From an uncultured Gammaproteobacteria bacterium (GTDB taxonomy: Bacteria > Pseudomonadota > Gammaproteobacteria > Legionellales > Legionellaceae), in assembly GCA_963784615.1 (NCBI GenBank), contig CAWASG010000001.1, forward strand, positions 1,824,046-1,888,045: a stretch of 64,000 nucleotides of DNA, written 5' to 3'. A model generated the notes under the pieces. It made no database searches, was not told the origin of the DNA, and saw nothing but the letters and a program-made list of their open reading frames with translations. Numbering within the stretch: the first letter of the stretch is position 1; each line of letters opens with the position of its first letter. The position numbers and the translations under genes were made by a program. This document shows, in pieces, positions 34,029 through 62,382 of the stretch.

Positions 34029-34222
34029 CCATTTAGTTTTGACCGGTTGATATAGGCAGATTAACACTATTTTGAACAGCGTCGTTGCGAGCGAAGCGCG
34101 GCAATCCAGAGTTCAGAGCACGGTACTCTGGATTGCTTCGTGCCTCGCAACGACGCCACCTGCAAGTTCATCGTTACTGCTTATATTGAAGCTACTGGCG
34201 TGAACCGGTCAAAACTAAATGG
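34029..34222. mobile_element. MITE family A, copy 1 (194 bp)
   Basis: Terminal inverted repeats CCATTTAGTTTTGACCGGT / ACCGGTCAAAACTAAATGG. Core palindrome CGTCGTTGCGAGCGAAGCGCGGCAATCCAGAG..CTCTGGATTGC. No coding capacity. Confidence 0.85.
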
Positions 34223-34292
34223 AAACGGTAATAGTAATGACCATTACTAAGTTATTTTGAATTTATGTCAATATCCTGACGTATAATCAGGA

Positions 34293-34435
34293 CCGTAGTC
34301 TGGGTGCCGCCCGCTCAATATTATAATTACACACGAAACTTGGTGCGGCAACCGGGTTGGGTATGATGCGGCGTTAAGGAATCAACACCGTATTCAATGT
34401 TGACGGGGCACTAGCCACCCGGCTGCCTCGCCGTT
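34293..34435. repeat. foldback repeat family C, copy 1 (ends 5 bp before the ATPase stop)
   Basis: CCGTAGTCTGGGTGCCGCCCGCTCAATATTATAATTACACACGAAACTTGGTGCGGCAACCGGGTTGGGT...GGAATCAACACCGTATTCAATGTT. About 88% identical to copy 2. Confidence 0.8.
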
Positions 34436-34439
34436 GAAA

Positions 34440-35888
34440 TCATGAAACCATCGCGCCTAAATCAATAATCTTAGTAAAATAATTCGCATCCACGATGGCA
34501 TCGCTGACTTCATTCGCATGAATAAGGACGGGGAAGCAGGAAAAGTGCTTGGGTAGGCTTAAGCAATCTATTTTTTGCTGAACTTCATCGATAACCTCTG
34601 TTTTAATCGCATTTCTGGAAAATTTGACTTCACATACGAACAAATTATGAAAACGAGTTTGAATTAAATAGTCAATTTGACATCCTGCATGTTGTTTTGT
34701 ATGTGTTTGAAAGTAGGCGCCGTCATTGACGATGTCATTAGCCGATAAGCCCAATTGCTCCCATATCAAGGCGCGATTACTTAAGACTAAATTTTCAAAT
34801 TGTAGCCCCATGATGGTGGACCATTCGGGCAATGTACTGAATGAATGTTGTTGATATAGGCCACGTTCAATTTTATTTTTTTGTTGATCAATATAGCGTA
34901 AATAAAACCGTAAATAGTTATCACTTAATCGATATCGGCTTAATTTAGTTGGTGTGCCGGTTTTGAATGACCACGCATAGTCTCGGCTGATAAACCCGGC
35001 TTCGACTAAATTGCTTAAGCACTCGCTTACCACGCCTCCTGAAACAATGCCTAACTCATTGCAGATGGTCCCCATGTCTGCAGAACCATTCACCAAGGTT
35101 GAAACAATGTGCTTATAATAAGCCGAGCGCTTATCAAATAAGTCATGAAAAATCGTATCAAATTCTCGAAAGAGTAAGCCGCCACTTTCAAAGCACAGTT
35201 GCTGAATATTGCTCTCTACCGAGAGATGAGGATTGATGCTTTCAAGGTATAAAGGAACGCCACCGGTAATCGCCAGTAATTTTAATTGATCATAAGCACT
35301 GACGCGGGCATGATATTTCCCCCAAAACTGTGCGCAAACGGACAATGGCAGTTCTTTTAATGTCATCACATAATGAATCCGGCCGACAAAAGCAGTTGAG
35401 GCCAAGAGATTTTCTTCAATCCATGATGAAACGGATCCGCAGAGAATCAGCATGAGATTTGGGTTTTTCTTAAACCCCTCATCCCAGGTGTTCTTCAATT
35501 TCCCTAAAAAAGCTGGATCGCCTGCGGCCATCCAGGCGATCTCGTCCAATAGAATAACGACTTTTCCTTTTTGCGTGCGACTGGATAACAACTCAAATAA
35601 CTCAGACCATTCATCGGCTTTTAGGTTGGGTAGGTCAGGATAATATCGGTTGAGGCGACGCGAGAAATCATCCCGTTGAGTTTGCGCGGTTACCTCTGGT
35701 TCTGGAGGAAGGCCGCTAAAACGATAAAACGTTTTTCCGCTGGAAAATTCCTCAATCAAGCGACTTTTTCCAATGCGCCGGCGTCCTTTGATGACAACAA
35801 AACAACTTTTTCCTTTGGAGAATAAGGAATTTAAGGTGGCTAGTTCTTGCGTTCGTCCAATAAAGGGTTGTGACATCGTTGATCCCAT
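34440..35888 (-). CDS. AAA-type ATPase (archaeal-ATPase-like P-loop N-terminal region plus DUF234-like C-terminus)
   Basis: The track ORF begins with TTG at 35900; the first ATG is at 35888 (MGSTMSQPF...). Walker A is VVIKGRRRIGKSRL and Walker B is VVILLDEIAW. The gene is bracketed by two copies of foldback repeat family C. Confidence 0.75.
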   Translation of the reverse strand: MGSTMSQPFIGRTQELATLNSLFSKGKSCFVVIKGRRRIGKSRLIEEFSSGKTFYRFSGLPPEPEVTAQTQRDDFSRRLNRYYPDLPNLKADEWSELFELLSSRTQKGKVVILLDEIAWMAAGDPAFLGKLKNTWDEGFKKNPNLMLILCGSVSSWIEENLLASTAFVGRIHYVMTLKELPLSVCAQFWGKYHARVSAYDQLKLLAITGGVPLYLESINPHLSVESNIQQLCFESGGLLFREFDTIFHDLFDKRSAYYKHIVSTLVNGSADMGTICNELGIVSGGVVSECLSNLVEAGFISRDYAWSFKTGTPTKLSRYRLSDNYLRFYLRYIDQQKNKIERGLYQQHSFSTLPEWSTIMGLQFENLVLSNRALIWEQLGLSANDIVNDGAYFQTHTKQHAGCQIDYLIQTRFHNLFVCEVKFSRNAIKTEVIDEVQQKIDCLSLPKHFSCFPVLIHANEVSDAIVDANYFTKIIDLGAMVS

Positions 35889-35892
35889 TTTT

Positions 35893-35980
35893 TGCGGCAA
35901 AATAAATTATACATAATTTGTCGCAAAAAATACAAGGCACATGTTTTGCGACAAATTATATTTTTAGTGATTTGCCGCAA
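35893..35980. promoter_or_regulatory. array of four TTGCSRCAA 9-mers (two inverted pairs) at the ATPase gene 5' end
   Basis: TTGCGGCAA at 35893, TTGTCGCAA at 35918, TTGCGACAA at 35946 and TTGCCGCAA at 35972, spaced 25-28 bp apart in AT-rich DNA. Operator-like. Confidence 0.45.
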
Positions 35981-35992
35981 AGTAATCCCACG

Positions 35993-60819: not shown

Positions 60820-61005
60820 GTGGTATCCCTATTCAAATCGTTTGGAAGCAGTTTTTTTATTGTGATGAGTCTCGCTTGAGGCGTCAAGTCGTTTATTCTC
60901 TAGTTTGCCTTACAATTTCATTACAGAAACCTGCATTCTTTTGGTTCACTTCCAAAAAGAGTTGTGGTAGTATGCCCAAGATTTTTCTAACTTTGGAGTA
61001 CAATC

Positions 61006-61515
61006 ATGGCAGATCACGATCTAGAAAACGCACAAGAAAGCTCAGAAGCCGCAGTCAGACCCACAGTAAAAATTATGCAATATTGGAAGACTGCATTAGC
61101 GGCGCTAGCTACTGTAGGTGCCATAGCTACATGTATCTATTTTCCACCAGCAGCTCTTTTTCTTTCGCCAGCGGTTGAATTTCTAGCAGGAAGCATGAGT
61201 TTTGCCGGTATTTGGGCTGGATTCGCTGCATTTGGAACAGTTGTTGCCGGTGTTGCTGCACTGACCTTTGGTGTGACTCGTTTATTGTTAGAAGGCTTTG
61301 AAGCTTTGGTGAATACATGCTGTGCTGGTACTGAGCCAGAAAACGAAGAAAACGATGTCAATGTTGACGACAATTCTGCGCCTGTTGAGAACAAAGAACT
61401 GGACGGTCAAGAGCTTCAAGCTCCAGTTGTTCACAGAGGTCCTCTGGGTGCTCCTGCTGCTGCTGTCCTTATTCCTGTTCCCAATGAAGAACAAGCTGCA
61501 TCACTAGGCTTGTAA
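61006..61515 (+). CDS. hypothetical membrane protein with an acidic C-terminal tail
   Basis: 169 aa with two to three TM helices and an E/D-rich tail. It has its own RBS (GGAG) and is followed by a canonical intrinsic terminator. Confidence 0.55.
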   Translation: MADHDLENAQESSEAAVRPTVKIMQYWKTALAALATVGAIATCIYFPPAALFLSPAVEFLAGSMSFAGIWAGFAAFGTVVAGVAALTFGVTRLLLEGFEALVNTCCAGTEPENEENDVNVDDNSAPVENKELDGQELQAPVVHRGPLGAPAAAVLIPVPNEEQAASLGL

Positions 61516-61582
61516 AAGCGCTTATCGGTCGAACCCGCGGCCTGTCCCGCGGGTTCCAAGTGACTGGTAATCTCAGTAGTTT

Positions 61583-61606
61583 AACGCGGCCTTGGCCGCG
61601 TTTTTT
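61583..61606 (+). terminator. rho-independent terminator of the 61006..61515 gene
   Basis: AACGCGGCCTTGGCCGCG followed by TTTTTT. A 10-bp GC hairpin precedes it at 61531-61556. Confidence 0.8.
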
Positions 61607-62174
61607 ATCCTTCCTCGCCCCACCGTTTGACCAAGCCACTGTCTAGATCAAACAAATCCAATACACGACCGACGGTATCGTCAATAAGCTCATCGATAGT
61701 GGTTGGTTTTTGATAGAAGGCGGGCACGGGTGGAAAGATAATCCCGCCCATTTGTGTCAGCGCGACCATATTGTTCAAATGTCCCAAATGCAAAGGTGCT
61801 TCACGAGGCATGATGACCAGGCGTCGGCGCTCTTTCAGCACGACATCTGCCGCGCGCGTCAGCAGATTCCCGCCAATGCCATGCGCCATTTCCCCTAAAC
61901 TTTTCATCGAGCAAGGGGCAACAATCATTCCCAAGGTTCTAAAGGAACCGCTGGCAATCGGTGCTGCAATATCACTGCAACGGTAGTAAACATCCGCCAA
62001 TGCCTTCAGCTCAGCACTATTCATCGCGGTCTCATACGCTCGCGTCAACTGTGCAGCAGGAGTGACGACTAAATGGGTTTCAATCGACAATTCCCGCAGG
62101 ACTTGTAATAGCCGAACACCGTAAATAATACCCGATGAACCGCTCATACCTATGATTATTCGTGGGGTGCTCAT
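61605..62174 (-). CDS. ubiX: flavin prenyltransferase UbiX
   Basis: 189 aa; RIIIGMSGSSGIIYGVRLLQVL is the flavoprotein fold of UbiX/Pad1. Confidence 0.9.
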   Translation of the reverse strand: MSTPRIIIGMSGSSGIIYGVRLLQVLRELSIETHLVVTPAAQLTRAYETAMNSAELKALADVYYRCSDIAAPIASGSFRTLGMIVAPCSMKSLGEMAHGIGGNLLTRAADVVLKERRRLVIMPREAPLHLGHLNNMVALTQMGGIIFPPVPAFYQKPTTIDELIDDTVGRVLDLFDLDSGLVKRWGEEG

Positions 62175-62220
62175 GAGCCGTTTCTCCGAGAGGTAGAGGT
62201 AAATGTATTATTTTTTTCTA

Positions 62221-62382
62221 TTTAGTTTTGATCAGTGGAATCGATGCAATTAAACCGGAATCCGAGCCACGACCGTTAGGGAGTGGAGCAGTTTCGGAGT
62301 CGGCTGAACTGCTCCACTCCCTAACGGTCGTGGCTCGGATTCCGGTTTAAACATCAACAATTTGAATATCGCTACCGGTCAA
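62221..62382. mobile_element. MITE family B, copy 2
   Basis: Same core as 38760-38918, with an intact right terminal inverted repeat (ACCGGTCAAAACCAAATGG). Confidence 0.85.

Follow-up and report, generated by a model that had tools for sequence, protein, structure and literature searches.

Two families of miniature elements with common IS630-type ends and unrelated hairpin interiors in a Legionella-like genome

Results

The stretch analysed here, 64 kb of contig CAWASG010000001.1 from an uncultured member of the Legionellaceae (assembly GCA_963784615.1; hereafter the window), carries four small intergenic elements that belong to two families, A (copies A1 and A2) and B (copies B1 and B2). A1 sits between convergent genes, where its left TA flank begins 2 nt (34016-34017) past the stop codon of a gene for a GNAT acetyltransferase, and A2, B1 and B2 each lie between divergent genes, which in the case of A2 encode a DUF2807 and a DUF1841 protein. 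In addition, the spacer between batC and batD holds a relative of the A interior, here called the third copy, and a fifth element of a third family is found upstream of dnaA (Table 1). [quoted passage not shown]

The inner part of the terminal repeat is the 19-mer CCATTTAGTTTTGACCGGT, for which seven sites with at most 3 mismatches were found in the window, compared to 0.00 expected from shuffled sequences. These sites form four inward-facing pairs less one decayed end. Since the 19-mer occurs in both families and chance would supply none, the proposal of an earlier, sequence-only reading that A and B have common termini holds. To define the boundaries, we collected 123 ends, both from the window and from other, related loci. 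On the outer side of the 19-mer, positions -9 to -1 show the conserved sequence GTACCGTTT, preceded by TA at 95 ends, with a C in front at 93 and the full CTAG at 79, while nothing further out than this C-TA is conserved. As conservation ends there, the terminal repeat in fact measures 28 nt, GTACCGTTTCCATTTAGTTTTGACMGGT, and stands in the usual context C-TA-element-TA-G. Thus the repeats reported earlier are real, although the limits then given to the elements have to be moved outward by 9 nt on either side. In A and B, the 28-nt ends deviate from the consensus at 1-5 positions; at the left of A1 and of A2, 4-5 deviating positions fall in the outermost 9 nt. TA flanks are present in the window at A1, at B1, at the fifth element and, for B2, at the right end. 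A search for target-site duplications, suggested beforehand, found TA, usually within CTAG, with the restriction that a single locus cannot prove a 2-bp duplication.

Table 1. Elements, repeat sites and related families; positions refer to the window
Feature	Position	Length	Ends	Flanks	Interior or context
MITE A1	34020-34231	212 bp	28 nt, GTACTTCATCCATTTAGTTTTGACCGGT and TTACCGTTTCC.. (reverse complement)	TA at 34018-34019 and 34232-34233, within C-TA..TA-G	hairpin core 34079-34156
MITE A2	50887-51098	212 bp		TAA at 50884-50886 and 51099-51101	core 50946-51023
MITE B1	38750-38939	190 bp	left end GTAACGCTTCCATTTAGTTTTGACAGGT	TA at 38748-38749 and 38940-38941	
MITE B2	about 62208-62401	~194 bp	right end GTACAGTTTCCATTTGGTTTTGACCGGT	TA at 62402-62403	
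Third copy (relative of the A interior)	44418-44603				batC-batD spacer; near-perfect 32-bp palindrome 44525-44603
Fifth element (third family)	13422-13590	169 bp	diverged, CCGTTTCCTTTGGTTTTGACAGG and CCGTTCCCTTTGATTTTGACAGG	TA at 13420-13421 and 13591-13592	
Sites of CCATTTAGTTTTGACCGGT	34029+, 34204-, 38759+, 50896+, 51071-, 62218+, 62374-				
GTAGGTTGGGTTGAG-headed palindromes (examples)	8555-8638, 27442-27525, 40074-40153, 49805-49887, 51122-51167, 54809-54887, 56432-56523				
Family in RH-20apr16-427		140 bp			B-like hairpin core
Family in RH-20apr16-427		160 bp			different hairpin core
Family in Legionella sp. W10-070		150-152 bp			hairpins of the GTCATCCCCGCG type (also written GTCATTCCCGCG type)
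Family in MFD02832.bin.1.183		167 bp			GTAG-type palindrome core

A1 and A2 have 215 nt in common at 98% identity and differ at 4 of the 212 positions within the element, so that their description as near-identical was accurate; their inner repeats are perfect. Their likeness stops exactly at the TA flanks and the surrounding DNA is unrelated, which is the prediction of transposition and not that of a duplication of a larger segment. B1 and B2 have about 166 nt in common at 83% identity, again with unrelated flanks; taken as copies of roughly 190 bp, they are about 84% identical. The right end of B1 has decayed and suffered a 3-nt deletion, yet it still ends in ..ATAC directly before the TA. 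In B2 the outer 9-10 nt of the left end have decayed to a T-run, so that the left boundary may be off by 1-3 nt. The perfect 32-bp arms once ascribed to family B as a whole are present in B1, whereas the arms of B2 measure about 45 bp; B1 likewise possesses the right repeat it was credited with, though a decayed one, and reaches to 38939 instead of 38918. Compared to B2 the loop of B1 is inverted, with 12 of 13 bases matching as reverse complement and 4 of 13 directly. Between the inner parts of A and B no similarity was detectable, in agreement with the earlier view that their cores are unrelated.

A possible parent was found in a related Legionellaceae genome, in which a pair of such ends encloses 1,492 bp (L057, 1809-3300). 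These ends, GTACCGAAACCATTTAGTTTTGACAGGT and GTACCTTTTCCATTTAGTTTTGACAAGT, are 2-3 positions off the consensus and flanked by cTA and TAg. The enclosed DNA encodes a protein of 375 amino acids with HTH_23/29/32 and DDE_3 domains, and homologues of this protein on annotated plasmids carry the name IS630 family transposase. From two close homologues of it we traced 19 further full-length copies (L093-L111) of 1,522-1,523 bp on metagenome contigs, each in a different setting. Every one of them is bounded by GTACCGTTTCCATTTA.. and all but one are flanked by TA; both ends have the outer 17 nt of the repeat, and the full repeat is present at the transposase end. The transposase-proximal end has 2 mismatches to the consensus and the distal end 4-5, all of which fall in the inner part (..TTCTGATCGAT). 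An intermediate form was seen as well (L013, 6100-6641), a derivative of 542 bp of whose transposase gene only the 3' part is left. The sequence-only reading had held that A and B depend on one transposase encoded outside the window; none is present in the 64 kb, and a full-length IS630 element with the same ends exists in a related Legionellaceae, both of which agree with that claim.

The transposase frame runs into the repeat, where ACMGGTCAAAACTAA encodes T-G/C-Q-N-stop, and most of the best 120 of 7995 transposase homologues end in ..QN, typically as KL[TI][GC]QN. Conservation of the ends is strong because, in the parent insertion sequence (IS), the closing residues of the transposase and its stop codon are encoded within the inner half of one of them. 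This inner half is under a constraint of both binding and coding, which explains why near-identical ends occur on otherwise unrelated elements. Upstream of the transposase, every full-length copy (L057, 2957-3253, and L093-L111) carries a small divergent helix-turn-helix (HTH) gene of 58-98 residues. The versions of 83-98 residues are LexA_DNA_bind-like and the 58-residue version has no Pfam match; the protein may regulate transposition.

Among the matches listed in a scan of one genome per species, the repeat occurs mainly in Legionellaceae, including Legionella sp. W10-070, Tatlockia and several metagenome-assembled genomes. The terminal repeat was absent from viral contigs and the A-specific junction from JGI metagenomes; plasmids gave no match to B, and their matches to A concern the core hairpin only. 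Short contigs of ERR12037365 are 100% identical to the window. The combination of one set of ends with different cores is general, as several MITE families in other Legionellaceae genomes show it (Table 1). Homologues of the family B core are present in the 140-bp family and in an element of Legionella sp. LH_M43. In RH-20apr16-427, many contigs stop inside these repeats.

Hairpin folding is a common property of the interiors, as 10 of 12 fold far better than their shuffles and A1, A2, B1 and B2 form long hairpins with z from -10.6 to -15.8. The arms are perfect or nearly so in the B copies of the window and in the third copy, and imperfect in related copies. We considered the cores as deletion remnants of an insertion sequence and rejected this origin, because the A, B and third-copy interiors showed no similarity to the IS interiors tested. 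At L069 (344-1152) the same ends enclose 809 bp, and here a second inverted-repeat element, with a gene for a 96-residue GIY-YIG protein, interrupts a MITE at CTAG.

The hairpin core of family A belongs to a class that many bacteria possess, far beyond these elements. A 23-mer of its arm (TTGCGAGCGAAGCGCGGCAATCC) occurs exactly in at least 120 metagenome contigs (L112-L231), which stem from many environments, and a Novosphingobium megaplasmid has it at 11 places, usually as part of a GTCATTGCGAG...CTCGCAATGAC hairpin (the class is also written GTCATTGCGAGCGAAGCG..GGCAATCC). The complementary arm is recognisable at about half of the sites, and even a weak match to an IS630-type end is present in only one of the 120 listed loci. 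A small GIY-YIG gene was observed in 7 of these 120 loci, and in three cases it is no more than about 250 bp away from the hairpin. The searchable literature contained no description of this class, and a search with the sequence returned unrelated primers only. It may have its own means of spread.

A second kind of palindrome is abundant in the window. About 13 palindromes headed by GTAGGTTGGGTTGAG lie between 5172 and 58141, with 25 half-sites compared to 0.11 expected. They represent a GTAG-type family of repetitive extragenic palindromes (REPs) distinct from A and B, one member of which lies 23 bp to the right of A2. In another genome, a GTAG-type palindrome forms the core of a MITE (L008, 1237-1403).

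The third copy was described as a rearranged derivative of A within the Bat operon. Its A core and inner flank and its location between batC and batD were confirmed, but it lacks the terminal repeats, for which no match was found at up to 10 mismatches in 28 positions. It matches the left arm and loop of A at 58 of 58 nt, with the loop in the same direction as in A, and the A core plus right inner flank over 121 nt at 83%, with the flank on the opposite side of the palindrome. It further contains a tandem pair of units of about 58 nt (44424-44462 and 44482-44520) that are homologous to the right inner flank of A. To call it A-derived names one possible direction only, as it may instead resemble a hairpin repeat that family A captured. 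The suggestion that this repeat creates a spurious N-terminus of BatD is plausible: since residue 125 is the first of the BatD domain and the repeat is followed by a stretch that resembles a signal peptide, the N-terminal extension, which results from the longest open reading frame reading through 44418-44603, is probably spurious. Extended arrays of 15-nt tandem repeats were seen within coding regions at 43895-44269, in the gene of the TPR protein BatC, and at 57442-57603, in an Ala/Pro-rich stretch.

The fifth element has its own hairpin core and lies in the spacer upstream of dnaA. This spacer is the likely origin region, the GC skew changes sign there, and it also contains 78-nt AT-rich direct repeats 518 bp apart (13652-13729 and 14170-14247).

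For A2 a comparison with a relative is available (L233; 82% nucleotide identity, same gene order). There the site reads ..GCGCAACT joined directly to GGTGCTTTTT.., and positions 50885-51188 of the window are missing, a region of 304 bp that consists of A2, a spacer and a GTAG-type REP. This shows that the 304-bp region was gained or lost between the window and L233. The same relative (7220-7250) lacks about 1.9 kb of the window (54688-56544), a stretch that contains the tatA/B/C-like region, reaches from ubiB to the next gene that the two have in common and has REP palindromes at both edges. For the A1 site, the closest relative of the GNAT gene is 78% identical and the intergenic DNA is not comparable. 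This GNAT gene (33026-34015) lacks a GrpB domain of about 110 residues, which its homologues, about 450 residues in length, possess with few exceptions. A truncation by A1 was rejected as cause, given that the C-terminus is complete and the lost part is the N-terminal GrpB domain. Next to A1, a direct repeat of about 110-140 nt and 89% identity (34293-34401 and 35993-36101) surrounds an ATPase_2/DUF234 gene (34440-35900) in a cassette-like manner; it has no Rfam match.

Judged by its genes, the window is Legionella-like and not from Coxiella. It encodes a LegT-like Dot/Icm effector (880 bits, under the equivalog cut-off of 1200 bits), the closest named relatives of its DUF1841 protein (50-57% identity) and of its GNAT protein (74-78%) are in Legionella species, and for the latter Aquicella is more distant than Legionella. 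The GC content ranges from 40 to 48%, and the yidC-dnaA origin region is included. With this effector, the further Legionella-like genes and no DUF1658 peptides in the window, an earlier lead toward the MITEs of Coxiella was not borne out. A tblastn search of seven DUF1658 peptides against the window had a best E of 0.013 and no hit in the elements, and the plasmid records are without these peptides too.

Scans for functional signals gave little. Promoter-like and terminator-like matches around all four copies are at background. The consensus of the integration host factor (IHF) is matched exactly in B1 (38893-38905) and with one base off in B2, while the window has 11 matches compared to 5.4 expected, which is near background. 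In the window Rfam found only one tRNA at gathering score, and at a permissive threshold nothing relevant near A1. Nothing indicates a host function.

Discussion

The ends, the exact limits of the copies and the full-length partner together lead us to regard A and B as separate families under one transposase. The mobiliser is likely a single IS630-type enzyme that acts in trans and is encoded outside the window. Such a DDE transposase would bind both ends, excise the element and insert it at TA, preferably within CTAG, so that TA would then be found on both sides of the new copy. Since the enzyme would read only the ends, A and B could be served by it alike, whatever lies between them. The interiors would be resident palindromic repeats that came to be enclosed between two ends rather than remnants of the insertion sequence, and these palindromes would later change, either by inversion of the loop or by copying of one arm onto the other. 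Both the mobilisation in trans and the manner of core acquisition are what we infer; the cores may have been captured as palindromes or may have entered as mobile hairpins.

Several observations weigh against this interpretation. The comparison with L233 is not clean, as A2 is absent together with the adjacent REP and spacer, and A2 is flanked by TAA, not by TA. B1 and B2 have one decayed end each and are probably immobile. Besides the lack of an IS630-type transposase in the 64 kb, the source contig of 2,230,977 bp is not listed for any of the best 120 among the 7995 homologues that the L057 transposase has. The cognate partner may thus be absent from the source genome, or distant.

These points lead to the strongest alternative, that A and B are fossils: IS630-type MITEs by descent, with no matching transposase left in the genome and no present mobilisation. 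The empty 64 kb, the decayed ends of both B copies and the 4-5 deviating positions in the left outer 9 nt of A1 and A2 all fit this idea, to which the homologue search adds a weak hint. However, only the best 120 of the 7995 homologues were considered, so that a more distant IS630 transposase is possible. Furthermore, the 4 differences in 212 positions between A1 and A2 and their perfect inner repeats suggest a recent move, and A2 is absent in the related species. We consider fossils a serious possibility, though one that falls somewhat short of being probable.

A further alternative concerns the interiors. The hairpin cores might be independent mobile or self-propagating modules that inserted into a minimal MITE instead of being enclosed by the ends. 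This would account for the many metagenome contigs with the A arm and hardly an end, for the 11 Novosphingobium sites and for the end-less palindrome at 44525-44603. It would also suit the GTAG-type palindrome, which is a MITE core elsewhere and common on its own in the window, and the one pair of terminal inverted repeats that holds a nested GIY-YIG gene. Yet no empty minimal MITE was found that could have been the recipient, the core boundaries showed no insertion signature and no enzyme for such a step was identified. In addition, the third copy comprises the inner flank of A along with the palindrome, to which the capture of a larger resident repeat fits equally. We therefore hold mobile cores to be unlikely and prefer, as what we infer, that resident palindromes were enclosed by IS630 ends and subsequently altered by inversion and arm copying.

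It is far less likely still that two transposases moved A and B and that their ends are alike by happenstance. While A has ..GACCGGT at both ends, the left end of B1 reads ..GACAGGT, and the fifth element demonstrates that diverged ends exist. However, the right end of B2 has CCGGT like A, both CCGGT- and CAGGT-type ends coexist within single families in other genomes, and the variants correspond to the G/C residue change in one transposase lineage. Finally, although the elements resemble REPs in being palindromic and in lying between genes and the window is rich in GTAG-type REPs, a spread by recombination or segmental duplication, or a handling as REPs by a REP-associated tyrosine transposase in place of an IS630 enzyme, is hardly credible, because the similarity of the copies ends exactly at the TA flanks, the 28-nt ends match those of the IS630 family and neither A nor B has the GTAG head.

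Returning to the enclosure of palindromes by IS630 ends, one might speculate that such ends repeatedly form new MITE families in Legionellales by enclosing any resident palindrome, and that the hairpin aids mobilisation by pairing the ends. Examples of enclosed palindromes would be the GTCATTGCGAGCGAAGCG..GGCAATCC class in family A, the GTAG-type REP elsewhere and the GTCATTCCCGCG-type hairpins of Legionella sp. W10-070. The palindromes themselves would also stay changeable, as in the flipped loop of B1 and B2 and the perfected arms of some copies. We regard the idea as doubtful.

What the analysis does provide is a defined system of parent and MITEs in Legionellales, with one 28-nt end, a known type of transposase and several families. 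It lends itself to the study of how MITE families originate and to strain typing by the presence or absence of copies. For annotation, the repeats are a nuisance, as they yield false N-terminal extensions like that of BatD and break assemblies, and we advise to mask them.

The searchable literature contained no description of the end sequence or of the A, B and fifth-element families, and a census paper which reports MITEs in 99.6% of Legionella genomes does so without describing them. Among the closest known systems is QMITE1 of Coxiella burnetii, an element of 300-400 bp that encodes DUF1658 peptides, was reported only from C. burnetii and possesses 21-28-nt terminal repeats, 2-4-bp direct repeats (some of them WW), a long hairpin and a conserved IHF-binding site (PMC5896051, Wachter et al. 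2018). The elements of the window resemble it in having terminal repeats of 21-28 nt, very short direct repeats, a long hairpin and a host within the Legionellales; B1 has one match to the IHF consensus, although such matches are barely above background. In contrast, they measure only 169-212 bp, lack DUF1658 and reside in a Legionella-like host. Compared by description, they are set apart from QMITE1 by size, peptides and host, and identity was rejected. QMITE2 is built on the GTAG REP and shows 7-11-bp direct repeats in full-size copies (PMC5896051). Its counterpart in the window is the separate, abundant family of GTAG-headed palindromes, whereas A and B lack such a head and show 2-bp flanks instead of 7-11-bp repeats, so that this identity was rejected as well.

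The Correia elements of Neisseria have no known parent insertion sequence. They are likewise intergenic MITEs, of about 100-150 bp, with TA flanks and the ability to form hairpin RNAs (PMC11602168). Their ends are different, and regulatory effects have been shown for them, whereas the scans reported here are at background.

The ends, TA flanks and small size of A and B, together with a parent that combines HTH and DDE domains, are those of IS630-derived MITEs. IS630-related MITEs include RUP in Streptococcus pneumoniae and Nezha in cyanobacteria, as well as Stowaway in plants, which is linked to Tc1/mariner. As in these, small non-coding elements have IS630-type ends and TA or CTAG flanks and would depend on a transposase in trans, and one set of ends is found on several families with unrelated interiors. 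Correspondingly, the elements of the window contain no transposase, and A and B are each present in two copies at unrelated sites. Two features differ here, namely the overlap of the inner half of the repeat with the C-terminus of the transposase and the extra HTH gene of the parent. Thus A and B are not a new kind of element and belong to an ordinary kind of bacterial mobile DNA.

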